Positions 5,478-64,000 of a DNA stretch of 64,000 bases are shown one piece after another. The notes beneath the pieces were generated by a model. The model was not told the origin of the DNA. It made no database searches and saw only the letters and a list, made by a program, of their open reading frames with translations. This DNA is from an uncultured virus (IMG/VR IMGVR_UViG_3300046536_000804). Lineage: Duplodnaviria; Heunggongvirae; Uroviricota; Caudoviricetes. The stretch is from the IMG/VR virus record IMGVR_UViG_3300046536_000804; one strand, given 5' to 3'. Position 1 is the stretch's first letter; every line of letters begins with the position of its first letter. The translations under genes were made by a program, and so were the position numbers.

Positions 5478-5716
5478 GTTTTCTCCTCCGCGATCGGATA
5501 CTTCTTCATGGCGGCAGCAATCGCCTCGCGCAGCGTGCTGCCGACTTCGGGCGTCTTGTTCTGCAGCTCCACCTGAAAGGAGCGGGCCGACCAATCCGGT
5601 CGGCCATTGCGTCGGCCGGCAAGGTAGACCTCGACGTAACCGGTGGCCGGTCGCATCAATTCCTCCAGGTAGTCGATCATCTGCTCGTCTGTCGGGTGCG
5701 TGTCATCGTGTTCCAT
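5474..5716 (-). CDS. hypothetical protein
   Basis: 80 aa ORF with AAGGAAG RBS. Confidence 0.55.
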   Translation of the reverse strand: MEHDDTHPTDEQMIDYLEELMRPATGYVEVYLAGRRNGRPDWSARSFQVELQNKTPEVGSTLREAIAAAMKKYPIAEEKT

Positions 5717-5736
5717 ACCCGTCTTCCTTTCCCAAC

Positions 5737-5759
5737 TCTTTCACCGGAGCGGGACGGTT
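5737..5759 (-). repeat. 23-nt motif copy with compensatory change (AACCGT-N5-TCCGGTGAAAGA)
   Basis: same length and consensus as the other copies; ACCG/CGGT replaces ACCC/GGGT. Confidence 0.75.
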
Positions 5760-5973
5760 AGTCGGCCAAGCCGAAGTTGCTTTCATGGGCTGCGAGAGTT
5801 GTTTCGATCTCGTTGGCCAGCCGTAAGGCATAGTGGCGAATGTCTCCAAGCTGAACTAGCTCGTCTTCCGTCCAGTGTTGTTCCTCTGGAAGCTCTGAAA
5901 GTGCCTCGGTCATAGCTGCACAGTCTTCACGAACAGTTCCGAATGCCGGCTTCGTCGGCTTTTTGTTAGCCAT
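5758..5973 (-). CDS. hypothetical protein
   Basis: 71 aa ORF with AGGAG RBS. Confidence 0.55.
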   Translation of the reverse strand: MANKKPTKPAFGTVREDCAAMTEALSELPEEQHWTEDELVQLGDIRHYALRLANEIETTLAAHESNFGLAD

Positions 5974-5976
5974 TGG

Positions 5977-6252
5977 TCACTCCTGATCAGCAGCCAGACG
6001 GATCTCGATCATCTCACGGACACGATCCGTGATGTCAACATCCAGCCGTCGCGAGGGAACATAGGAGATCGCACCATTCTTGCACACCTTGGTCAACGCG
6101 TCTTTGCAGGCGCCGGGCTGCGTCCACGACAATTCGAATCGGTGCAGTACGTCATCAATCTGCAAAAGGTCTTCGACCGGTGTGTCTCGCAGCAACACTG
6201 CGAGCTCGGTTGTCATATTGAGGATCTCAGCGGCTCTCTTGCTGAATTCCAT
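5977..6252 (-). CDS. hypothetical protein
   Basis: 91 aa ORF with GGAG RBS. Confidence 0.55.
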   Translation of the reverse strand: MEFSKRAAEILNMTTELAVLLRDTPVEDLLQIDDVLHRFELSWTQPGACKDALTKVCKNGAISYVPSRRLDVDITDRVREMIEIRLAADQE

Positions 6253-6267
6253 GAATCGGTTCTCCGG

Positions 6268-6747
6268 CTATAGGGTCGAATGTGAAGAATCGAAGATCCT
6301 CGCCGTGTTTTCCATGATCCGCACCAGTTGCGGATTGATGTGGAACCGGGTGGAGTTCACCTCGATGGATTTGAGGATGTTGCCATTGTTGTGGCGTTCG
6401 CTGGCGGCCTTCCAGTCGACGAACATCTCCAGGATGTCGAGCAACGTCATGTCGTCGATACCGTTTTTGTGATGCTCTGGGTGGTGAGCGTTCCTCGCAT
6501 AGTGATGATCCAAGGCAGGCTTCAGCGCTTTGCGGAATCCTTCGTACTCTTCAGAGCCGTACGTACAGGCTGCGAGTTTCGGCGTCCACTCGGTGAACAG
6601 CTCGACTTCGGGGGACTCGAGCTTCGACTGGTCGTGTTCTTCTCCTCGACGGAGGAGGTCGGCGACAAAAAGGTTTAGCAGGTTACGCACCCGCTCGATG
6701 TGCCGCATGGTGGTGTAGTTCGTTGATTGCTGTTCGAGGGTTAGCAC
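6268..6747 (-). CDS. DUF5662-like (HD-related) protein
   Basis: HDQSK, HHYARNAHHPEH, EMFVDWKAA; GTG start after AGGAG. Confidence 0.75.
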   Translation of the reverse strand: MLTLEQQSTNYTTMRHIERVRNLLNLFVADLLRRGEEHDQSKLESPEVELFTEWTPKLAACTYGSEEYEGFRKALKPALDHHYARNAHHPEHHKNGIDDMTLLDILEMFVDWKAASERHNNGNILKSIEVNSTRFHINPQLVRIMENTARIFDSSHSTL

Positions 6748-9554: not shown

Positions 9555-11603
9555 GTGACGCGAAAGCCAACAACACGCCGCCTTCTTGGGCGACGATTTA
9601 CCGAAGAAGGCGTGGCAGACCTACTGCCATTGGGTAGAATGCTTCCGGTATCACTCTTTTCCGGAGGTTTTGTGCTCGTCAAGAAAATCCATCCGAAGTT
9701 GTTGCTCGCTCGACGCACGCTCGAATCGCTCAGCAACGTCGAAGTCTGCAGGTCGGTAACCGATCTGCAGCGTCTCGAAGCGATCCAAGCTCTTGTCGAG
9801 CACGGCAATTTGCAGACTTTCGTACCGCTCTTGCCTGCCTGCTTCAACCTGAACGGCTACCCATTTACTCTGGACGACCACTTTGCTCTCGAACCGGTCT
9901 TCAAGAGATCGATGCCGGAAGTCTTGACGATCAAGGGGGCTCGCCAGTTCGGCAAGTCGACGTTTCAAGCGGCGCGATCGCTGCTCGTCTCGCTAACGAT
10001 GCCTTACTTCTCCACCCTCTTCGTCTTTCCTCTCTTCGAACAAGTTAACCGGTTTTCAACACAGTATGTTGGCAAATTCCTTGAGGAATCGCCGATCAAA
10101 AGCGCCTGGATGGGACCGCGATCCAGCAATAGCGTTCTCACCAAGGCGTTCAGCAATTTCTCCAAGATGACCTTCAGCTTCGCCGGCCTCTCGGCCGAGC
10201 GTATCCGGTCGGTCAGTGCGAACAGCATCATCTTCGACGAGGCCCAGAATCTGGACCGTCGGCAGATGCCGGTCATCTCGGAGGTTATGTCGCATTCGCT
10301 GGTTTACGATCGACGCACCCAGCGTCGAGTCCACGCGAAGTTCACCGTCATCACGGGCACCCCGAAGACGCTCGACAACTTCCTCGAGGTGAAGTGGGCT
10401 GAGTCGAGTATGGCAGAGTGGGTGATCCCATGCGTATGCGGCAAGGAGAATTACCCGGCCAGGGGTATGGACCTGGAGAAGATGATCGGCCCTATGTATC
10501 TGGAGTCCGACAAACGCGAGATCGGCGAGGTGCGAGACAACAAGCGACCCGGCACCATCTGCGCCAAGTGCGGCCGCAGCATCGACCCTCGTATCGGCTT
10601 CTGGCATCACCGCCACCCCGATCGTATCGCTACGAAGCCAGGTCTGCACGTCCCGCAATGCATCATCCCGGTTCACTATGCCCAGCCCAAAGGCTGGGCC
10701 ACCCTGCTGGGCAAGCAGGCCGGCAGCGGCAACTACACGACCGCCAAGCTGTACAACGAGGTTCACGGCGAGTCGTTTGATCTAGGAGCTAAATTGCTTA
10801 CCGAAACCGATCTGAAAGCGGCAGCCGTATTGCCGTGGCATAACAACCCGATGAGTTTTGCGGACCTGGCTCGCAGCATCCGCAGCAAATACGTGTGTCT
10901 GTTCATGGGAGTCGACTGGGGCGGCGGCGGCGAGAGCGAGGTCAGCTTCACCACGGCAGCCGTTCTTGGCATGCTCCCAGACGGTCGCATCGACATCGTC
11001 TACGGTCGCCGACTGTTGCTGTCGCACGATAACCGAGGCGAGAACGAGATCTTGCTCAACATCTACGACACGTTCGGCTGCAGCTACTTCTGTCACGACT
11101 ACAACGGTGCCGGCGCCCTGATCGAGCAGTACCTGGTGCAGAGCGGTCTGCCGATCAACCAGGTGGTGCCGTTCGTTTACTACCGCTCCGCGGCGAAGGA
11201 TATCGTGGTATTCCACCAGGCGGCCGAAGAACATCACCGCAGTTATTATCACCTGGACAAGGCTCGTGCATTGGAACTGGTCTGCGAAATGATCAAGTTG
11301 AAGCAGATTCGGTCTTTCAAGTACGACCACATCTCCGAGGATGAACGAGGTCTGTTGATCGACTTCACCAGCTTGGCTCAAGCAAAAATCGAAACCGCCC
11401 GGGCAGGCGAGGTGCACACAGTGCAACGCGTTGGCTCCTTCCCGGACGATTTCGCACATTCGGTTACGTTTGCTGCTTGCGGTATCTGGCACGCCAACGG
11501 GATATGGCCGGACTTGCCTATGCTGGCGAAGCTTATGATAACGAAGGAGCAGGAGGAAGCCTTGAATCCGTCTAGCAGTCCGTGGGATGTCCAATCGACA
11601 TAG
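9555..11603 (+). CDS. terminase large subunit (GpA-like)
   Basis: KGARQFGKST Walker A, IIFDEAQ Walker B, GTPKT, Zn-finger insert, nuclease motifs MGVDWGGG and PDDFAHS; true start may be the ATG at 9639. Confidence 0.85.
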   Translation: MTRKPTTRRLLGRRFTEEGVADLLPLGRMLPVSLFSGGFVLVKKIHPKLLLARRTLESLSNVEVCRSVTDLQRLEAIQALVEHGNLQTFVPLLPACFNLNGYPFTLDDHFALEPVFKRSMPEVLTIKGARQFGKSTFQAARSLLVSLTMPYFSTLFVFPLFEQVNRFSTQYVGKFLEESPIKSAWMGPRSSNSVLTKAFSNFSKMTFSFAGLSAERIRSVSANSIIFDEAQNLDRRQMPVISEVMSHSLVYDRRTQRRVHAKFTVITGTPKTLDNFLEVKWAESSMAEWVIPCVCGKENYPARGMDLEKMIGPMYLESDKREIGEVRDNKRPGTICAKCGRSIDPRIGFWHHRHPDRIATKPGLHVPQCIIPVHYAQPKGWATLLGKQAGSGNYTTAKLYNEVHGESFDLGAKLLTETDLKAAAVLPWHNNPMSFADLARSIRSKYVCLFMGVDWGGGGESEVSFTTAAVLGMLPDGRIDIVYGRRLLLSHDNRGENEILLNIYDTFGCSYFCHDYNGAGALIEQYLVQSGLPINQVVPFVYYRSAAKDIVVFHQAAEEHHRSYYHLDKARALELVCEMIKLKQIRSFKYDHISEDERGLLIDFTSLAQAKIETARAGEVHTVQRVGSFPDDFAHSVTFAACGIWHANGIWPDLPMLAKLMITKEQEEALNPSSSPWDVQST

Positions 11604-28483: not shown

Positions 28484-29413
28484 TTACGAGACAACCTTCA
28501 AAGGAAACCACCGCGGCGGATTGTCCGGACACGTCTGCTCGGCCCAGCTTGTCCGCTTGTCCACTGGGCACCCGCAGATGCCACACTGATCGCAGAACCG
28601 GTGTTCGCACAGCAAACACGATTCTAACCGACTTTCCCAGGTCGCGTCATCGACCAGGTGCATGCCCGATGCCGCATGCTCGGCTAGAGCCTTGCTGAAA
28701 TTGAGAGCCTGCTTCAAAATCCCGGGCGGTTGCTTCTTGTCTCGATCGTCGCGACTCATGATCGTCAGCCCGGGCACCCGCAACGTGACGGTCCATTCTC
28801 GGTTTTTCTTGATAAACTCCCGCACAGCGTGGAGTGGGCCGACGTCGTTGACGTGATCGTTCTTGCCGGTTATGACGATCCACCGCTTTACCTGGCCAGC
28901 GTAACTGCGCAGCAGCGCTATGACGTGACCAGAGCCGTGAGACTCGTCCAGGAAAAGAAGATCCGTCGCCTCGATCCTTGTTTTGGTGTCACGCTTGACG
29001 AAGGTGAATTCACACTTCCCTTGGCGAGACTGCAGGTTGAGCAGGATCGGGTCGTCTGTTGATGTGTACGTAGTGAGCTTCTTCGGCTGACCGGCAAGGA
29101 AGGAAAGCGTGCTGTAGACGGGGCGTATCGCAAGTTCCGTGACGGTTTCGCACTGGCCAGCCATTTCCTTCAGACGCTGCATGTGCTCATTGAGATAGCC
29201 TGGTTGCTGGCGGGTGCCTTCGAACATCTGGTCGAGCGTGATGGAGTCAGGCAGCGCAACGGGTGTTCGCATGGTGGTCGGGCGAGGTTGATGTTGAACG
29301 ACGGCCGGTAGTGGCTGCCCACCGCCGCAACAGCCTTTTGGTTGCTCGACGCGAACCGGGTTGGCTGGATTTTCCATCAGAGTGGCCCATTCTTTTTCCG
29401 AAATCTTCCCCAT
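28484..29413 (-). CDS. class I methyltransferase-like protein with C-terminal Cys-rich domain
   Basis: INEH-like LNEHM, VTELAIR, TDLLFLDESH, GLTIM; tail RLESCLLC...CGICGC...CP. Confidence 0.6.
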   Translation of the reverse strand: MGKISEKEWATLMENPANPVRVEQPKGCCGGGQPLPAVVQHQPRPTTMRTPVALPDSITLDQMFEGTRQQPGYLNEHMQRLKEMAGQCETVTELAIRPVYSTLSFLAGQPKKLTTYTSTDDPILLNLQSRQGKCEFTFVKRDTKTRIEATDLLFLDESHGSGHVIALLRSYAGQVKRWIVITGKNDHVNDVGPLHAVREFIKKNREWTVTLRVPGLTIMSRDDRDKKQPPGILKQALNFSKALAEHAASGMHLVDDATWESRLESCLLCEHRFCDQCGICGCPVDKRTSWAEQTCPDNPPRWFPLKVVS

Positions 29414-29476
29414 GGACGTCTCCTCTGCGAGCTGAGGCCCGAGCACGATTACTCGGGCCTCATTGTCGACACAACA

Positions 29477-30469
29477 CTACTCGTAGGTCTTCAACAGAGC
29501 GTCGATGTCAGCCATGACATCTGCCAAATAGGTGTAATTCTCTGCTGCGAGTTCATTACAACTGGCTACGTCAGCGGCGCACTGACCCATATAGTCTGCC
29601 CAATAAAGTGCGCTTTCATAATCCTCAGAACCGTAATTGGAACTGTAAGCCCCATCGCTGTAATCGTACCAGCCTGCACTGCCCACAACATATGAAGTTA
29701 GATCCGCGATCGAGCCCTGGAAGGCCACGGCTTCTGCCACCAGGTCGAGATACGTACCATAATCTTCGCACGACATAGATACGTTATATTGACGAACTGA
29801 GAAGTCGTAGAGCACATCCGTTATATCAGAATCGACGGTGTCGAGCCAACCGATCGACGTGCCTGATGCAAGAGTAGTAGCTTCACCGTAAGCATCATCC
29901 GCACTGTCTTGGATTGTCGCATTCCCGTTATCACCCAGTTCGTCTGGAGGACAACAAATGTAGTCCTTCACAATTCCCAACATAATGTTGGCTTCAATAC
30001 CGCCGTCAAAAGCTCTGCTGGATGCCTTTCCAGCGGCATCGGTAGCCTCATCAACAAGTCGCAATGCTTGGTCCATACGCCTGTTGGCACTGACAAAATC
30101 AAGAGCTTTAGCCGACTCGGCGGCTAATGAAAGCCAAACTTTGGCCGCAGCGATCTGCCCTTTTGCCAGTGTCAAACTGCTGTCTGCGCTACTTGCAGCG
30201 GAATTTGCGGCGATCTTGTTGAAGGCGTAGTCGTTCTTTTGTTTGTCAGTAAGAAAACCGGCGCCCAATGTATAGCCACCGTCTAAGAGGTACAATCGCT
30301 CACTCAGGGCGGCGCTCTTAGCAGTAGACGCTGTTTGGGTAGTACCAAAAGCAGTCTCTTTGGCCGCATACGTTGTTGCACTCGCCGTGTACTTTTTCTC
30401 CAACGTAGTTTGACCGTTAACGACGCCCGAAACCAGAAACGCGAGACACAGAAACACAAACTTCTTCAT
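29477..30469 (-). CDS. exported protein with Sec signal peptide
   Basis: MKKFVFLCLAFLVSGVVNG; Ala-rich helical body. Confidence 0.65.
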   Translation of the reverse strand: MKKFVFLCLAFLVSGVVNGQTTLEKKYTASATTYAAKETAFGTTQTASTAKSAALSERLYLLDGGYTLGAGFLTDKQKNDYAFNKIAANSAASSADSSLTLAKGQIAAAKVWLSLAAESAKALDFVSANRRMDQALRLVDEATDAAGKASSRAFDGGIEANIMLGIVKDYICCPPDELGDNGNATIQDSADDAYGEATTLASGTSIGWLDTVDSDITDVLYDFSVRQYNVSMSCEDYGTYLDLVAEAVAFQGSIADLTSYVVGSAGWYDYSDGAYSSNYGSEDYESALYWADYMGQCAADVASCNELAAENYTYLADVMADIDALLKTYE

Positions 30470-30503
30470 ATCAGACCCCTAAAAAGGAAACACACAACTT
30501 GCC

Positions 30504-31691
30504 CTACTTCACGACCGCAACCCCATCAACAAAATGGGCTTTGACACGATCAAGAGGTATACCAAGCTCGTTGTGTCCGATCACATAGTTACGAACCTTG
30601 TCGTGAACGTCAAGGCGGTACTTCGGACCGCCTGATCTGCCAAACCGATGCGGCCAGCCTAACCACGGCAGGCACCAACACTTACGACCGGCCTTGCGGA
30701 ATTTCTCGTGGATGTACCACTCCTCGCCACCGAAGCCGCGGAAGTTCTCATTGAAGCCAAGCCAGGCATCCTTTCGGCAGGTGAACAGCCCGAGACCCAT
30801 GGCGCCGATCTCGAACGGTTCGCCCGTGTACTGCATTCGATATTTTGTGAACCCGTGCTCGAGCAATCGGTCATTGGTATCGGAAAGCATGAACGGGAAC
30901 TCTTTCCCGCACCTCGGACAAAGGGAGCCAAACTGGTGATCTTTATCTCGGTCGATCAACGAACCGTCAGGAAGATAGTAGTAGGCGACAGGTGACGGTG
31001 TCGTCGGACATTCCGGTGACCCGCCGTTTCGATTGACCTCAACAGTGAACTCTAATCCGCACGGGCAGTACCAAACTACCCGACCTTTCGAGTTCGGATC
31101 GCCACGATGATCCGTCGCCCATGTGCCCCACATCTCACCACGCCAAACGTTGGCAAAGTGCGTGGCTCGCTGTCGCAGGTCGTCGTAAAGCATCGGTCCC
31201 GAGAAGAGGTCGTCCCGTGACGGCTCGTCGTACGGTGGTGGCGTGGTCGTCGGCCAGCCACTGCGAGGGTCGGGCAGTGAGTCGTAGAAGTCGATCAGCT
31301 TCTTAATAGCCCCCGGCGCGATGAAGATGTGCGGATCGATGCACATTACGTTCTCGCTCGACGCCTCGATAAAGACTTGGTTGCGAGGAGCAGCAGTGCC
31401 GATGATGTCGGTGTAGGGGATGTAGCGGGCCGGTATCGGGTCGTTGCGCATCCAGCCAATGAGATTCTTGGTCAGTTTCCCGTCGGGACTGTCTGGGTTG
31501 TTATCCACGACGATCAGCTCGACGTCCTGCATCACGTCCGCGTGAAACAGCCGCAGACCCTGCACGGTGGCCCAGACTCCGTCGTAATCATCGTAAACTG
31601 CCATACCAATCGTTAGCTTGGGACGGCTAACTTCTCCACAATCATCCGTTTGAGGATCGAGAGAAGCTCCTGGTTGAACGGATTGCACCAT
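30504..31691 (-). CDS. GT2-family glycosyltransferase with inserted Zn ribbon
   Basis: LTIGMAVYDD, LIVVDN, APRN, CIDPH, FRGFGGEE; CPCG...CPRCG insert; start uncertain. Confidence 0.82.
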   Translation of the reverse strand: MVQSVQPGASLDPQTDDCGEVSRPKLTIGMAVYDDYDGVWATVQGLRLFHADVMQDVELIVVDNNPDSPDGKLTKNLIGWMRNDPIPARYIPYTDIIGTAAPRNQVFIEASSENVMCIDPHIFIAPGAIKKLIDFYDSLPDPRSGWPTTTPPPYDEPSRDDLFSGPMLYDDLRQRATHFANVWRGEMWGTWATDHRGDPNSKGRVVWYCPCGLEFTVEVNRNGGSPECPTTPSPVAYYYLPDGSLIDRDKDHQFGSLCPRCGKEFPFMLSDTNDRLLEHGFTKYRMQYTGEPFEIGAMGLGLFTCRKDAWLGFNENFRGFGGEEWYIHEKFRKAGRKCWCLPWLGWPHRFGRSGGPKYRLDVHDKVRNYVIGHNELGIPLDRVKAHFVDGVAVVK

Positions 31692-60424: not shown

Positions 60425-61150
60425 TTACACACCCGCCTGGACCGTGCTGCCCCAGCTCGGGTCGGTGGTGTCGAGAACGTCGTCGGTCAGGATGACTGCG
60501 CGGGACGTGTGGCCGGCGGTCAGGTTCGCCGTCGGTACCGCAGGAGCCGCGGCGAAAGCCTGTGTGCCTTCGTTCCAGGTGGCCGAACTCATGTCCAGCG
60601 TGGTGCCGGACGTGATTTTGTTGTAATACTTCTTCGCAGCCCCGGCAGTGACGGCGCCGACCGAGGTGTCGCTGAGGTACACCTTGATCCCGGTCGCACC
60701 GGTCGGGATGGCTGGCAGGGTGACACGGGGGATGTTGGTCGCACCAACGGTAAAGTCGGCCGACTCACCTCCGGCCAAGGTTTGACCCCACTCGTTGTAG
60801 AACGTGTAGGAGACACGGTAGTGCCCGGCCACCAGCGATCCGCCGGTGGCACCACCGCCGGTGGGGGCCACGGTGGCCGTGGTGGTTGGATCGGCCAGAG
60901 CCGGGTCGGGCGTGGTGTCGAGAAGGATCGGCACCGGGTTCTTCAAGAACGTGATGGCCCCGGAAAGGATGTCACGCTCGAGCGACGCCTGCTTGCGTTC
61001 GTTCCAGCTTGGCTGCGACTGCAGATTGCCGAAGATGTTATAGATCTCGCCACTGGCCAGTGTGCGGCCGTGACGCGTGACATAGGTGAAGAACCGCGGC
61101 GCACCGGAGGTGTTCTTCAGTCGCGTGTAGAGATCAGAGGTGTCGGACAT
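60425..61150 (-). CDS. putative head decoration protein
   Basis: 241 aa; shares a 69-aa segment with the sheath insert. Confidence 0.55.
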   Translation of the reverse strand: MSDTSDLYTRLKNTSGAPRFFTYVTRHGRTLASGEIYNIFGNLQSQPSWNERKQASLERDILSGAITFLKNPVPILLDTTPDPALADPTTTATVAPTGGGATGGSLVAGHYRVSYTFYNEWGQTLAGGESADFTVGATNIPRVTLPAIPTGATGIKVYLSDTSVGAVTAGAAKKYYNKITSGTTLDMSSATWNEGTQAFAAAPAVPTANLTAGHTSRAVILTDDVLDTTDPSWGSTVQAGV

Positions 61151-61211
61151 GTCGAGATTCCTCGTTCAAGGTTATGCGGGTAGTTCCTGATATCGGGATA
61201 TCGCGGTGAAT

Positions 61212-61607
61212 TTACTTCGCCAGAGCGACTTGCGTCGCTTTGACGGCTTCGGCTTCGAGGTGATCGAGGTACCGCGAGGCGGCCGCCTTGATCGCCGCAT
61301 CGCTCAGGATGTTGTCGGCGGCTTCCTTGAACATGGCCTGCGAGACGACCGGCTGGCCGATCGCCTGGCGGACGGCGCCGATGGTGCGGGTCAGGAAGGG
61401 GTCTTCGCCGACGGAGGCCTTCTTGATGACGTCTTGCTGCTGGGCCGCAACGACGAGGTCGGCCAGTTCCATCAACTGGTCTTCCTGCTCGACCGTGCGG
61501 GCGTGGATGTTCCAGTCGCGAGCGAGCTTCTCCAGAATGACCGGCCGGCTGATGCTCTGAATGAGCAGGGCCTTGTCTTGTTCCTGGGTGGCGGCGGTTG
61601 CGCTCAT
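61212..61607 (-). CDS. hypothetical Ala-rich (head assembly?) protein
   Basis: 131 aa with AAGGA RBS; first gene of the virion run. Confidence 0.6.
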   Translation of the reverse strand: MSATAATQEQDKALLIQSISRPVILEKLARDWNIHARTVEQEDQLMELADLVVAAQQQDVIKKASVGEDPFLTRTIGAVRQAIGQPVVSQAMFKEAADNILSDAAIKAAASRYLDHLEAEAVKATQVALAK

Positions 61608-61653
61608 AGTATTGATCCTTGAGGTTGTACGGGACTGCTATCCGAATAGGTTG

Positions 61654-61682
61654 AGTTTACACGGCAGGAGGTCGGAACGCAA
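61654..61682 (-). promoter_or_regulatory. sigma70-like promoter
   Basis: TTGCGT-N17-TAAACT upstream of the 61607 gene. Confidence 0.5.
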
Positions 61683-61720
61683 GTTGGGGAGCTGCAATAG
61701 CTAAAAGAAAGCCGAAGACA

Positions 61721-61748
61721 CCCCACCCACCTGTCTAGGTGGGTGGGG
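61721..61748 (-). terminator. 12-bp hairpin after the kinase gene
   Basis: CCCCACCCACCT-N4-AGGTGGGTGGGG. Confidence 0.55.
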
Positions 61749-61757
61749 GTCGATTCA

Positions 61758-62288
61758 TTAAGCGTTGCCGACAAACGGCCGGACTGACTCCCAGGTTAGC
61801 GGACCCGTGTTGCGATAGACGTGCAGATCCTTCACGCCAGCCTGCAGTTGTGGCAGGTCGGCCATCCACTCGTCATACAGCATAGCTGCAAGATCCTCGA
61901 ACGTCCTGACGTGGGCGTAGCTGGTCGGCTCGCCGGTGCGAATCGCCTTACGTACCCTTCGAGCCGTACGCCTGGAGACCACTAGCTCTTTCGGCGGCAG
62001 AACAACCAGTACCCGGTGCTCGAAGAGCGACCGTGGCGTAGCCGCAAGCTGACCACCCTCGACGATACCGATGCCCTTGCTCAGGATCAGAGTCTCGCAA
62101 GCGACTTTGACTCGCAACGCCGCGTAGCCGTCCGGCTGACCTTGTCTCAGCAGCTCTTCTGCCGGACGAAGTTTCGGCAACCATTCGGGATGCTTATCGC
62201 ACCGCAATAATGGAAGAGCCATGTTACTGGCGACCAACTCAGCGACCGCCGTCTTCCCTGCCCCTGACGGACCAGTGATGCACAACAT
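61758..62288 (-). CDS. P-loop nucleotide kinase-like protein
   Basis: ITGPSGAGKT, LRCD, IVEG, RRTAR. Confidence 0.7.
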   Translation of the reverse strand: MLCITGPSGAGKTAVAELVASNMALPLLRCDKHPEWLPKLRPAEELLRQGQPDGYAALRVKVACETLILSKGIGIVEGGQLAATPRSLFEHRVLVVLPPKELVVSRRTARRVRKAIRTGEPTSYAHVRTFEDLAAMLYDEWMADLPQLQAGVKDLHVYRNTGPLTWESVRPFVGNA

Positions 62289-62311
62289 ATCCTTACCCCA
62301 GCAAGTGTACG

Positions 62312-62349
62312 AAAAAAGCCCTAAGTTGCACTTGCACAACTTAGAGCTT
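62312..62349 (-). terminator. intrinsic terminator closing the tRNA array
   Basis: AAGCTCTAAGTTG-N8-CAACTTAGGGCTT followed by TTTT. Confidence 0.7.
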
Positions 62350-62446
62350 CGGCAAGTTCAGAATCTGAACTAGCTATGCTGCACCACGATATACTGACAC
62401 ACTTTCGAGGCTAATTTAGCACAAATGGACCCAATGACTTTTGTCG

Positions 62447-62469
62447 TCTTTGACCCGACGCAAAGGGTT
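62447..62469 (-). repeat. 23-nt motif copy just 3' of the tRNA array
   Basis: AACCCTTTGCGTCGGGTCAAAGA. Confidence 0.8.
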
Positions 62470-62476
62470 AGTGAAT

Positions 62477-62549
62477 CGCCCTCGCTCGGATTCGAACCGA
62501 GGTCTCAACCGTTTAGAGCGGTAGTGCGATGCCGCTTCGCCACGAGGGC
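62477..62549 (-). tRNA. tRNA with CUA anticodon (amber suppressor type)
   Basis: acceptor GCCCTCG/CGAGGGC, D arm GCGA/TCGC, ACCG-CT CTA AA-CGGT, T arm CTCGG-TTCGAAT-CCGAG; no encoded CCA. Confidence 0.85.
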
Positions 62550-63140
62550 TTTATTCCTTCCGCAGAATGTTTCTGTCTGCGAGTTGCAGTTTGGGCACAG
62601 CAACCTCAGGTTGCTTACGAGACCATTGCGACGATTTCCGTCTATGTGATCCAAGATAAGTACAAGCGGTTTGCCGAACCAAGACGGTGAATTACCGCAT
62701 TCGTAGCAGTTGTTGTTCAGGATGCCTTCGGCGATCAGTCTTCGTTTTCTACCGCCACCGATGGGGTGGTCACTGTCTGCAACTAACACCTCCGCCCACG
62801 GCGTACGTTGTCTGATTCCTGACGTGCCGTGACTTAACCCTTTCCAGTGGCTGGTATCAAGACCGTGTCTCGCCACTTCGCGTTTCACCCAGCTATAGGC
62901 AGAGCCTACAATAGCTCGATTCATCTTGCGAAGGACTGCTGATATGCTCAAGCTCTCTGCAACAGCCTGTTTGAACGCGTCAACGTCGTATCCTTGCCGT
63001 CGGTTACTTACTAGATGGTCAAGGCGGTGTTTCTTGATCCACCAGCGAACAGTTGATCGCGAACAATCAAAATAATCGGCGATCTCCTGTAGCGATTCGT
63101 CGTGGATCGTCAAACGCTGCTCGAGAATATTTTTGTCCAT
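62505..63140 (-). CDS. HNH homing endonuclease with N-terminal HTH
   Basis: LQEIADYFDCSRSTVRWW; CYECG...LDHIDGN..N..SNLRLLCPNC; 3' end overlaps tRNA-CUA. Confidence 0.88.
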   Translation of the reverse strand: MDKNILEQRLTIHDESLQEIADYFDCSRSTVRWWIKKHRLDHLVSNRRQGYDVDAFKQAVAESLSISAVLRKMNRAIVGSAYSWVKREVARHGLDTSHWKGLSHGTSGIRQRTPWAEVLVADSDHPIGGGRKRRLIAEGILNNNCYECGNSPSWFGKPLVLILDHIDGNRRNGLVSNLRLLCPNCNSQTETFCGRNKALVAKRHRTTALNG

Positions 63141-63147
63141 ACATACT

Positions 63148-63176
63148 ATCGTAGCACAACAGGAGTGGCGGAGCAA
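63148..63176 (-). promoter_or_regulatory. sigma70-like promoter for a probably leaderless HNH mRNA
   Basis: TTGCTC-N17-TACGAT with extended TG; ATG follows after a 7-nt spacer. Confidence 0.55.
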
Positions 63177-63207
63177 TTCGCTGCTCTGCCAATTGAGCTA
63201 CGGCCGC
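63174..63207 (-). pseudogene. tRNA 5' half truncated in the anticodon loop
   Basis: GCGGCCG TA GCTC AATTGGCA GAGC A GCGAA TT G, then the HNH cassette; no matching 3' half seen. Confidence 0.7.
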
Positions 63208-63213
63208 TTACAT

Positions 63214-63287
63214 TGACCTCGCCTGGAGTCGAACCAGGATTACGACCGTTTAACGGGTCGGGAATTAGCCAATTATTCGACGAGGTC
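63214..63287 (-). tRNA. tRNA with 8-nt anticodon loop, probable UUA (ochre) anticodon
   Basis: GACCTCG/CGAGGTC, GAAT/ATTC, CGACC-CGTTAAAC-GGTCG, CCTGG-TTCGACT-CCAGG. Confidence 0.7.
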
Positions 63288-63292
63288 TAAAG

Positions 63293-63464
63293 AGCCGGTG
63301 GCAAGATTCGAACTTGCGTCCAACGGTTTATTAAACCGCTGCTCGAGCAGTGTCAGCTCTGGCGTTCTTCACCGGTTGTACTTCCCGGCTATCACCGCTT
63401 TCGCTTGGCTGCCAGATCATCGCAACGTTAACGCCCGCGACGATCCCCACTGAGCTACACCGGC
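63293..63464 (-). ncRNA. tRNA-like RNA with 107-nt D-loop and AAU anticodon
   Basis: perfect GCCGGTG/CACCGGC, GCTC/GAGC, GCGGT-TTAATAA-ACCGT, GCAAG-TTCGAAT-CTTGC. Confidence 0.75.
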
Positions 63465-63468
63465 ATAG

Positions 63469-63587
63469 CGGCGGTGGCTGGATTCGAACCAACACCTCCC
63501 AGCAAGCTGGGTGCTCACCACCCCGGAAGGGGAGTGCCGATCTTTGCCGGCGAACCGGTTTCGAAGGACACATTGAGCTACACCGCC
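63469..63587 (-). ncRNA. tRNA-like RNA with 58-nt D-loop and CUUG tetraloop instead of an anticodon loop
   Basis: perfect GGCGGTG/CACCGCC, GCTC/GAGC, CCCAG-CTTG-CTGGG, GTTGG-TTCGAAT-CCAGC. Confidence 0.75.
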
Positions 63588-63594
63588 GTTGTCC

Positions 63595-63617
63595 TCTTTC
63601 ACCCGAGGCCAAGGGTT
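63595..63617 (-). repeat. 23-nt motif copy just 5' of the tRNA array
   Basis: AACCCTTGGCCTCGGGTGAAAGA. Confidence 0.8.
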
Positions 63618-63624
63618 ATCTGTC

Positions 63625-63981
63625 TCACGCTGCTGCCAGGGACAAGCCCCGCAGCAACTTCTGCTTACGGAACACCCGCCGCTGCTCGCCCGACACCAAC
63701 TCGGTGGCAAACGCCGTCATCTCGTTGTCGAGATCCTCTTCCCAGAACTCGCTGCAGCGGATGCCGGCAGCTCTCGCAGTCTTCAGCATCTCGACGAGTT
63801 CTTTCTCGTCGGCGACGGTGCAGATGACCAGGTTGGGACTCTCGACGTCTTCAGGGGTGAGATGGTTGCGTGCCGATTTGATGGCAGCATGGCAAGCCTG
63901 GACGGCCTGCTGTGGGACAGAAAGGTCTTCGCGGACGACGCAATAAATGTACTGCGTTGGACTGGAGATCTAGTGAGTCAT
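63625..63981 (-). CDS. Pth2-like peptidyl-tRNA hydrolase with in-frame TAG at codon 4 (absent from the ORF track)
   Basis: AAGGAG-N6-ATG ACT CAC TAG, then 114 open codons: YIYCVVREDLSVPQQAVQACHAA...LVICTVADEKEL...FWEEDLDNEMTAFAT...KLL. Confidence 0.8.
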
Positions 63982-64000
63982 GACTCGCTCCTTGGGGTTG

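Follow-up and report, generated by a model that had tools for sequence, protein, structure and literature searches.

A phage CUA tRNA and its candidate target, an early in-frame UAG in a PTH2-fold gene

Introduction

A 64,000-nucleotide (nt) stretch of DNA from an uncultured virus of the Caudoviricetes (IMG/VR record IMGVR_UViG_3300046536_000804), the whole of which we call the window, carries on its minus strand a tRNA gene with the anticodon CUA (tRNA E) and, upstream of it, a gene for a protein of the PTH2 (peptidyl-tRNA hydrolase) fold whose fourth codon is TAG. Comparison with related loci suggests that tRNA E is a working amber-suppressor-type tRNA dedicated to this UAG codon rather than a sign of genome recoding, a reading to which we assign a probability of roughly 0.7. 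Wherever an in-frame stop and a suppressor-type tRNA are both seen in a relative, codon and anticodon match; in-frame stops have been gained repeatedly in this gene family, and the upstream start codon lies in frame with the core of the protein.

Up to now, discussion of suppressor tRNAs in phages has centred on their use in recoding whole sets of genes. The locus described here points to a different and apparently widespread use, in which one tRNA would serve one gated gene of tRNA recycling within a genome that keeps the standard code.

Results

An early in-frame TAG in a PTH2-fold gene

The PTH2-like gene lies directly upstream of an array of tRNA-type genes on the same strand (Table 1), and its codon 4 supplies an in-frame UAG that is cognate to tRNA E. 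No ATG, GTG or TTG occurs between this TAG and residue 13, where the PTH2 profile starts. On the coding strand of the window, the arrangement of an ATG led by a Shine-Dalgarno (SD) sequence, at most 12 codons, a TAG and a long open reading frame (ORF) is found only once, in this gene. The original prediction, made from the letters of the DNA, held that long genes here are uninterrupted by TAG, which is correct for the other ORFs of the window and incorrect for the PTH2-like gene.

The encoded protein matches Pfam family PF01981 at 29.1 bits (cut-off 23; E-value 1.2e-6), and a profile of its family matches solved Pth2 chains in the PDB with E-values of 5e-7 and 1e-6. An AlphaFold model, built with 39 relatives in the alignment, has a pLDDT of 89.3. 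Foldseek places the archaeal Pth2 structures 2zv3, 1wn2 and 3erj and human Bit1 1q7s at the top (E-values 4e-7 to 5e-6, TM-scores about 0.7), and the 11 top-ranked distinct rows are all Pth2 or Bit1-type chains, including the unannotated archaeal 1rlk (TM-scores 0.66-0.75). Aligned members of the family retain a nearly invariant D83 and an invariant T89 of the second motif.

Elsewhere in the window, two same-frame ORFs on the minus strand (29477-30469 and 28484-29446; 330 and 320 amino acids) are split by a TAG plus 10 codons, and read-through would fuse them. We rejected this pair (28484-30469) as a read-through case and regard the arrangement as a coincidence, since the second ORF has its own SD and ATG.

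Stop codons that change together with the anticodon

Searching with the window protein as query yielded 13 loci from IMG/VR, 80 from metagenomes and 5 from species genomes, for a total of 98 including the window once an archaeal canonical Pth2 without the family motif had been dropped. These form 67 clusters at 90% identity, or 65 after L059 was merged with L008 and L090 with L002. Four of the species-genome loci lie in Planctomycetota or uncultured metagenome-assembled genomes (MAGs); this distribution suggests Planctomycetota as the host phylum. The closest relative, L001, encodes a protein 60% identical to that of the window and shares an identical stretch of 12 nt, ATGACTCACTAG. Two tRNA(cta) genes lie within 11 nt of the PTH2-like stop in L001, and the second one is of the tRNA E type.

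An in-frame stop is present in 43 of the 65 clusters and occupies one of two places. In 30 clusters it follows the ATG by 2-13 codons (26 TAG, 4 TGA), with recurrent leaders of the forms MTH-stop, MT-stop and M..GF[TVLA]-stop. A fixed internal stop, found in 13 clusters (12 TAG, 1 TAA), lies about 14-21 codons past the invariant QQAVQACH, typically in the context ..P-stop-[VL]xxW..HKT. The PTH2-like gene of L002 contains two TAGs.

A suppressor-type tRNA is found in the fetched locus of 48 of the 65 clusters, most of the others being contigs of 1-2 kb. Where both the stop and a suppressor tRNA are seen, the codon matches the anticodon in 33 of 33 clusters: TAG with cta in 29 (18 with a leader stop and 11 with an internal stop), TGA with tca in 3 (all leader stops, in L004, L026/27 and L036) and TAA with tta in 1 (an internal stop, in L064 and L071-73). 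For L022, L036 and L039, tRNAs were sought with relaxed ARAGORN settings, which give many false calls, and with an acceptor/T-arm finder; only the L036 tca tRNA, found by both, was accepted.

The sequence gaattcac[g/a]-STOP, which reads Glu-Phe-Thr-stop, is common to the leader TAG of L019 and the internal TAA of the L064/L071-73 lineage, and Phe-Thr-stop is the commonest leader ending. Thus, the two codons before the stop may have been selected for read-through.

A search of 1.84 billion representatives with the family profile returned 2,348 clusters at E-values up to 1e-10. Among the 20 top matches that were read, several begin inside the core, for example with MYVFVRRDL or VYVFVRRDL (P0007, P0009, P0019, P0020, P0024, P0029). 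Starts of this kind are frequent among database gene calls of the family and fall, for example, at the V of the Y-V-Y motif. Such core-internal starts are consistent with gene callers having been blocked by an upstream in-frame stop, and the stop would explain why the PTH2-like family is truncated by gene callers, with many database entries starting inside the core.

In-frame starts and repeated gain of stops

When all frames within 110 nt upstream of the core were scanned, an SD-led ATG was found in 27 of the 30 leader clusters. All such ATGs are in frame with the core in 26 of these clusters, and one cluster has them in frames 0 and 2; the remaining 3 have none under the SD rule. If upstream ORFs were independent, only about one in three would be expected to share the frame of the core. 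A purine comes next after the stop in 30 of 30 leader clusters and in 10 of 14 internal cases. In Escherichia coli, a purine after the stop favours suppression.

It could be argued that the Met-Thr-His-stop mini-ORF is a separate leader peptide acting by re-initiation or attenuation, and that its TAG is a true stop. Very short ORFs ahead of genes are common regulators, and the stop is directly followed by ATG in L004 and by GTG in L024 and L036. However, in most leader clusters no canonical start codon separates the stop from the core, and the in-frame position of the SD-led ATG in 26 of the 27 clusters that have one is not what a separate peptide would predict. Nor does a leader peptide account for the clade with internal stops, in which the full enzyme needs read-through, or for the covariation of the stop with the tRNA anticodon. 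We therefore consider a leader peptide highly improbable.

The history of the stops was followed on a maximum-likelihood protein tree of 63 rows, from which two duplicates and two rows of fewer than 70 residues were left out. On this tree leader TGA needs 2 changes and leader TAG 6, at least 3 of the latter being forced by well-supported branches, and the internal TAG and internal TAA sites fall in separate places. In-frame stops thus appear to have been gained repeatedly, which argues for selection rather than decay as their probable cause.

Code usage in the window

All three stop codons are used normally in the window, as the stop-codon count proposed with the original prediction now shows. 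The 60 curated ORFs end in TGA 30 times, in TAA 19 times and in TAG 11 times (33, 21 and 11 for 65 greedy ORFs). ORFs ending in TAG include those for the terminase (phrog_675), an AAA ATPase, a GT2 protein and baseplate J, and the claim that several genes end in TAG without genome-wide recoding is thereby borne out for the window. Code 15 would be recognized by in-frame TAG codons in many genes and by TAG not serving as a stop; the window has one gene with an in-frame TAG alongside its 11 TAG-terminated ORFs. Under code 11 the coding density is 0.908, and it is 0.915 if TAG is read through, a comparison that we used for the window only and that barely discriminates in GC-rich loci, where the removal of any stop lengthens ORFs. 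The distance from a TAG stop to the next in-frame stop has a median of 12 codons and is not clearly different from that for TGA and TAA stops.

A 70,819-nt contig from a rhizosphere run, which is probably the source sample and not independent, contains window positions 62400-64000 at its positions 30071-31671 with 0 differences. This contig implies either at least 39 kb beyond the window end or a circular molecule of about 70.8 kb with 6.8 kb unseen. A second sequencing run provided only a 209-nt matching piece, with 3 differences; none of the runs listed as containing the sequence is an RNA run. A search for the window's own contig with an exact 30-nt pattern gave no match in IMG/VR, and the metagenome scan contained no 100% match.

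DNA of this extent (6.8 to 39 kb) beyond the window end is one reason to consider ordinary or incipient TAG recoding, whereby the CUA tRNA would serve many TAG-containing genes outside the window and the PTH2-like TAG would be one of them. Several relatives reside on contigs of 240-510 kb, the L002 gene carries its two TAGs, and Borges et al. (10.1101/2021.08.26.457843) describe phages of standard code whose acquisition of suppressor tRNAs may be a step on the way to recoding. Nevertheless, we judge recoding to be quite unlikely. The 60 window ORFs, among them replication, packaging and tail genes, are without in-frame TAG, and 11 of them use this codon to terminate. Moreover, the stop occurs at the same two places of one protein across clusters of only 30-60% identity, and where it is TGA or TAA instead, the tRNA has changed with it, whereas a freely recoded codon would alternate with synonymous sense codons.

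tRNA E carries the features of an amber suppressor

ARAGORN finds exactly two tRNAs in the whole window, both on the minus strand, at 62477-62549 (cta) and at 63214-63287 ('ttaa', with the 8-nt loop CGTTAAAC), and so confirms the two that had been proposed. The Rfam tRNA covariance model (RF00005; gathering score 29 bits) gives 52.7 bits for tRNA E and 45.5 bits for the other, tRNA C, which it detects only when a short stretch is searched. Both are real tRNA genes and not chance matches.

The anticodon loop of tRNA E comprises 7 nt, C32 U33 C34 U35 A36 A37 A38 (CUCUAAA), and thus has the U33, the CUA and the purine at position 37 of an amber-suppressor layout. The anticodon stem has six layers (C-G, U.U, A-U, C-G, C-G and G-C), the variable loop has 4 nt (AGAC) and the discriminator is G73. 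The D loop is AGCGGCA with a normal GG, TG separates the acceptor and D stems, and the T loop is TTCGAAT. In the ARAGORN structure the CUA loop, the six-position stem with its U-U mismatch, the D-loop GG and the TTCG are all as they had been described at the outset. In the tRNA at 8915-8988 of L001, compensatory changes preserve the six-layer stem, with all six layers Watson-Crick pairs. In a search of IMG/VR for tRNAs of this type, the contig of L001 was the only other one.

A CUA anticodon and a six-layer anticodon stem, here with one U.U layer, are also found in tRNA-Pyl, and this part of the comparison drawn in the original prediction stands, the stem being conserved in the L001 counterpart. 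The rest of the likeness does not hold. tRNA-Pyl has a small D loop that lacks G18G19, a single base separating the acceptor and D stems, a 3-nt variable loop and an atypical T loop, whereas tRNA E keeps the D-loop GG, the two bases between acceptor and D stems, a 4-nt variable loop and the TTCGAAT T loop. No aminoacyl-tRNA synthetase or pyl family (pylS/pylBCD) was found among the 56 window ORFs scanned with Pfam.

tRNA C is an altered relative of tRNA E

All stems of tRNA C are perfect, and its layout is that of tRNA E (one base, a six-layer stem, a 4-nt variable loop). The acceptors, which had been noted as shared, are the same except for one compensated pair (GCCCTCG/CGAGGGC versus GACCTCG/CGAGGTC), the run TAAACGGT is common to both, and the discriminator is A73 in tRNA C and G73 in tRNA E. 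In the anticodon arm, tRNA C differs by a GC-to-CG swap at the stem end and by the loss of C34. By these resemblances tRNA C is evidently a paralog or duplicate of tRNA E with a damaged or altered anticodon loop, in agreement with the paralogy first proposed.

tRNA C had also been put forward as an ochre suppressor (UUA) paired with the amber tRNA. The letters TTA do occur in its loop, for which ARAGORN prints 'Stop|Leu', and ochre suppressor tRNAs are indeed located beside PTH2-like genes in L064 and L071-73. However, Infernal aligns the loop as C32-[g]-U33-U34A35A36-A37-C38, that is, with the anticodon UAA and an extra base 5' of the anticodon, and not as a canonical ochre loop in which U33 is followed by U34-U35-A36. 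With UUA as the anticodon, position 33 would be occupied by G, where U is universal; the bona fide tRNA(tta) genes in L064 and L071-73 have a normal 7-nt loop (CUUUAAA); and no window gene has a conserved in-frame TAA, a codon that ends 19 of the 60 ORFs. The 8-nt loop and the amber identity of tRNA E thus survive from the proposed pair, and an ochre function for tRNA C is very unlikely.

If tRNA C does decode, it would read UUA/UUG, or UUA-N as a quadruplet in the manner of tRNA-SufJ. It might then act as a +1 frameshift suppressor at UUA/UUG-N or supply the rare codon UUA, and TTA is in fact the rarest Leu codon of the window (55 of 18,810 codons). The four perfect stems and the Rfam score would suit a functional tRNA. 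A long variable arm is a feature of bacterial tRNA-Leu, and tRNA C does not have one. The exact anticodon-arm pattern of tRNA C has no match in the 98 loci or in IMG/VR, its loop ends in C38 rather than in the A36-A37-A38 run of tRNA E, and a scan of TTA and TTG codons in the window gave only trivial overlaps with downstream genes and no target for a +1 shift. A decoding role is accordingly doubtful, with somewhat better prospects than ochre suppression. tRNA-SufJ, a +1 frameshift suppressor (Fagan et al. 2014, PMC4238358), resembles tRNA C in its 8-nt anticodon loop and in an insertion 5' of the anticodon, the extra base in tRNA C being 5' of U33; SufJ is a mutant tRNA-Thr from the laboratory whose target codons are known, whereas tRNA C is without known target or relatives. 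The most probable of the readings is that tRNA C is a duplicate that was altered recently or is decaying, or else a tRNA-like RNA with no role in decoding. Its perfect stems argue against a long period of decay.

The array and its probable insertion

tRNAs E and C are members of a tight minus-strand array (63587-62477) of five tRNA-type genes and an ORF of the HNH homing-endonuclease type, in the order A, B, C, D, HNH ORF, E, with spacers of 4-6 nt between successive tRNA-type genes (Table 1). In tRNA-like A, the acceptor stem and T arm are intact and the D arm is enlarged by a branched insert of about 54 nt with UUCG and UUCC tetraloops. Its 'anticodon' arm, CCCAG-CUUG-CUGGG, ends in a tetraloop and is without an anticodon; the predicted fold has a minimum free energy (MFE) of -51.6 kcal/mol, a z-score of -2.35 and an MFE frequency of 0.49. 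tRNA-like B combines the acceptor GCCGGTG/CACCGGC and an intact T arm with a structured insert of about 100 nt in the D region, and has an anticodon arm GCGGT-UUAAUAA-ACCGT (nominal anticodon AAU; z-score of the fold -3.62).

Fragment D is without a matching 3' half and ends where the HNH segment starts, and the final 45 nt of the HNH ORF overlap tRNA E, so that its TGA stop is located inside tRNA E. The truncated tRNA D and the HNH ORF, which has helix-turn-helix (HTH) domains, together look like a mobile insertion into the array (62505-63207). In a blastn comparison of the array with INPHARED, the sole match was a 61-nt segment of the HNH ORF in two Streptomyces phages.

An imperfect 30-nt direct repeat (26 of 30 positions identical) brackets the entire array. 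The repeat folds into a hairpin, in which the two copies differ by one compensatory C-G/G-C change, and similar motifs recur in other contigs of the same rhizosphere run. It was not found in the 98 related loci and has no Rfam match. Theta ribozymes have been located beside phage suppressor tRNAs (preprint 10.1101/2023.06.13.544163), and the repeat may be a processing site comparable to these. The terminator-like hairpin that follows the array did not appear in a consensus terminator scan, and its T run begins 3 nt past the stem. Among other Rfam families, searched across 61000-64000 at E-values up to 10, no ribozyme or other family was found; YrlA, mascRNA and mir-127 matches fell far below their gathering scores. 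The YrlA match at C/D (19.8 bits against a gathering score of 69) was rejected as an artefact of the T arm of C adjoining the D arm of D.

Table 1. Features of the window around the tRNA array, with similar features of related loci
Feature	Position	Strand	Length	Basis and remarks
Shine-Dalgarno AAGGAG	63988..63993	-		6 nt 5' of the PTH2-like ATG; read from sequence
PTH2-fold gene	63625..63981	-	118 codons	starts ATG ACT CAC TAG, ends TGA; Pfam PF01981, AlphaFold/Foldseek
In-frame TAG, codon 4	63970..63972	-		proposed target of tRNA(CUA); translation and scan
30-nt direct repeat, copy 1	63589..63618	-	30 nt	between PTH2 stop and tRNA-like A; alignment and fold
tRNA-like A	63469..63587	-	119 nt	Rfam tRNA 48 bits with 54-nt insert; acceptor/T-arm finder
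tRNA-like B	63293..63464	-	172 nt	acceptor/T-arm finder; partial Rfam tRNA match 63301-63348, 29.1 bits
tRNA C	63214..63287	-	74 nt	ARAGORN; Rfam 45.5 bits; 8-nt anticodon loop CGUUAAAC
D, 5' tRNA fragment	63183..63207	-		read from sequence: GCGGCCG TA GCTC AATTGGCA GAGC
HNH homing-endonuclease-type ORF, HTH N-terminus	62505..63140	-		phrog_10822, E-value 1.1e-38; HTH domains
tRNA E	62477..62549	-	73 nt	anticodon CUA; ARAGORN; Rfam 52.7 bits
30-nt direct repeat, copy 2	62441..62470	-	30 nt	starts 6 nt past tRNA E; alignment
Terminator-like hairpin	62311..62345	-		CTAAGTTG-loop-CAACTTAG, then GGC and TTTTTT; after the array; weak part
tRNA-like genes with insert, related loci	L007:10283-10427; L058:10312-10457; L079:1865-2012; L012:10344-10467; L086:8545-8734
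Conserved neighbour ORF, related loci	L094:6412-6810; L096:6396-6800; L097:6402-6800			likewise in L004, L015, L017, L019, L020, L026/27, L036, L037/39, L095

Related tRNA-like genes and neighbours

Genes of 119-190 nt that resemble tRNA genes, with acceptor and T arms intact, large structured inserts and no usable anticodon loop, occur in other loci as well as in the window, where A and B are of this kind. These long genes separate the PTH2-like gene from the CUA tRNA in the window and in L007/57, L058, L079 and L012/74; in L086 the long tRNA-like gene is about 1.3 kb upstream of the PTH2-like gene. A of the window and the element of L012 share their first 16 nt and a GTCCTTC..AAAC stretch. 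A search for relatives of A with two gapped patterns gave 0 matches, the pattern being one A too long to fit L012, so that these blanks say little. Directly after the PTH2-like gene in L018 (695-772 and 866-941) and L028 (682-758) are tRNAs with loops of 8 or 6 nt, which ARAGORN reports as 'gcaa', 'ca' and 'gaaa'. The odd-looped tRNAs of L018 carry an encoded CCA, and the loops in L018 and L021 are of 8 nt and 6 nt. On the strength of these recurrences, the module may regularly include aberrant tRNA-like RNAs.

A second conserved ORF, of about 130-160 amino acids, is located between the PTH2-like gene and the suppressor tRNA in many relatives and is absent from the window and from L001. Its product has the motif SRWG[FY]HPC.YE.F.KLK.L..WYWQT..F..W.RW.RK.PQNR and is fused to the PTH2-like domain in P0003 and P0034. 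This 'RWGFHPC' protein matches no Pfam or PHROG family, and the ESM Atlas, with scores of at most 0.82, gave no lead. In L022, a protein with an HD-type domain (10321-10947; the label was assigned from motifs by eye) adjoins the PTH2-like gene, and the PTH2-like protein P0015 has a related sequence as its N-terminal half.

In the Planctomycetota MAGs L094, L096, L097 and L020, the module is found amid genes for ribonucleotide reductase, a Ser/Thr kinase, DUF1501 and a transposase, in surroundings that look chromosomal, and in L001 an integrase and an HTH gene (5498-6505) are 1-3 kb upstream of it. Given the integrase and transposase genes and the chromosomal-looking neighbours, the module may be mobile as a small cassette. 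In the Rubripirellula-type genome containing L096 there are 87 Rfam tRNA matches, with dense runs at about 591-595 kb (about a dozen) and 628-633 kb (about thirty), and these amount to an unusually large tRNA island.

Discussion

A proposed suppressor-tRNA gate on one gene

The explanation that best accommodates these findings is a natural suppressor-tRNA gate. Ribosomes would initiate at the SD-led ATG and make Met-Thr-His. At the UAG they would either terminate, leaving no enzyme, or accept the suppressor tRNA, whose amino acid would then be inserted and the full protein completed. The enzyme would thus be made only in the presence of a charged suppressor tRNA that can compete with release factor 1, and the arrangement would constitute a feed-forward or feedback loop. 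tRNA E and the PTH2-like gene may be co-transcribed. As for the PTH2-fold protein, its most likely target is the ester bond at the 3' ends of tRNAs, and it might serve to recycle peptidyl-tRNAs that arise from stop read-through or to set the level of charged suppressor, thereby feeding back on the suppressor tRNA. The original proposal of regulatory suppressors or decoys rather than recoding tRNAs is therefore upheld in its first half for the CUA tRNA, by the standard code of the window and the conserved covarying pairing, while the decoy half finds no support.

Several observations weigh against a dedicated gate. tRNA E is 1.07 kb from the PTH2-like gene, behind four other tRNA-type genes and the HNH ORF. 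In-frame stops are absent from 22 of the 65 clusters, 15 of which keep a cta tRNA, indicating that the gate is not obligatory for the pairing. No suppressor tRNA is seen in 8 of the 26 TAG-leader clusters, of which six are short contigs and the other two are L022, with a 10-kb flank on each side, and L039, with 10 kb upstream and 4 kb downstream; the same is true of the TGA-leader cluster L024 (1 kb) and the internal-TAG cluster L088. The clusters were found via peptide patterns that include QQAVQACH, which leaves more distant members unsampled, and they are related to each other, so that the counts are not counts of independent events. The 6.8-39 kb beyond the window end could hold more TAG-containing genes, and the conclusion that there is no recoding has the window as its scope. 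Finally, a lysine of the GK(G)K loop has a catalytic role in Pth2, and the lysine positions of this loop, occupied by K in chains 24bt and 2zv3, are an invariant Q24-Q25 in 39 of 39 aligned family members. With Gln-Gln in place of the Pth2 lysines, canonical peptidyl-tRNA hydrolysis is not assured, and the activity may differ from that of canonical Pth2.

A more far-reaching possibility, which we offer tentatively, is that the suppressor tRNA together with the PTH2-fold protein constitutes a mobile, self-contained switch, in which the enzyme acts back on the suppressor and so sets a tolerable level of read-through. Through a stop matched to the tRNA, the mRNA of the enzyme would itself sense suppressor activity, and the Gln-Gln enzyme would hydrolyse, for example, the aminoacyl or peptidyl form of the suppressor tRNA. 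The tRNA-like RNAs A, B and C and the long ones elsewhere would then be substrates or decoys. If this were true, the module would serve as a natural homeostat for read-through, or as a commitment switch, and would be a step on the way to the recoding of stop codons.

Returning to the gate as such, covariation of stop and anticodon over all three stops, repeated gain of stops at two sites and the in-frame start together make a comparative case, in bacteria and phages, for programmed read-through that depends on a dedicated tRNA. The module may also illustrate how a suppressor is tolerated by a phage at a stage before recoding has evolved.

Comparison with known systems

Release factor 2 is autoregulated through an early in-frame UGA in its gene, prfB, where a +1 frameshift senses the factor. 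There as here, an early in-frame stop in a gene of the translation apparatus makes synthesis depend on how the stop is handled. The difference is that we propose in-frame read-through by a dedicated tRNA.

In recoded phages (crAss-like, Lak, Agate and Jade), the code-change module described in the available text of Borges et al. (10.1101/2021.08.26.457843) consists of a suppressor tRNA with an aminoacyl-tRNA synthetase plus a release factor. Like the locus studied here, these phages encode a tRNA with a CUA, UCA or UUA anticodon in a standard-code host, and read-through is proposed there as a translational regulator. Their in-frame stops affect many late genes, whereas the window has a single in-frame TAG, in a PTH2-fold gene beside the tRNA; the words 'peptidyl' and 'hydrolase' do not occur in the preprint text as available. 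A PTH2 of the archaeo-eukaryotic type has been reported in jumbo phages near tRNA and RNA-repair genes and proposed to act in ribosome rescue (Iyer et al. 2021, PMC7824862). The portion of that article at hand contains neither 'suppressor' nor in-frame stops, and the family described here differs further in having the invariant QQAVQACH in place of the lysine-bearing loop. A full-text literature search, which extended to sources outside subscription journals and preprint supplements, found no paper linking PTH2 with suppressor tRNAs or in-frame stops. Phage suppressor tRNAs and programmed read-through are thus known, whereas a conserved, anticodon-matched, stop-gated PTH2-fold gene is not described in the literature searched.

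The closest parallel in logic is an engineered one. In the coherent feed-forward 'leak dampener' of Ho et al. (NAR 2020, PMC7969014), which works with amber and with opal codons, expression of a gene with a nonsense codon requires the production of a co-regulated suppressor tRNA. That circuit is artificial, whereas the module of the window is natural, conserved and repeatedly arisen, and the product of its gated gene, of the PTH2 fold, is predicted to act on tRNA itself. The module therefore offers natural parts for suppressor-gated circuits, whose logic has already been put to work by design (PMC7969014).

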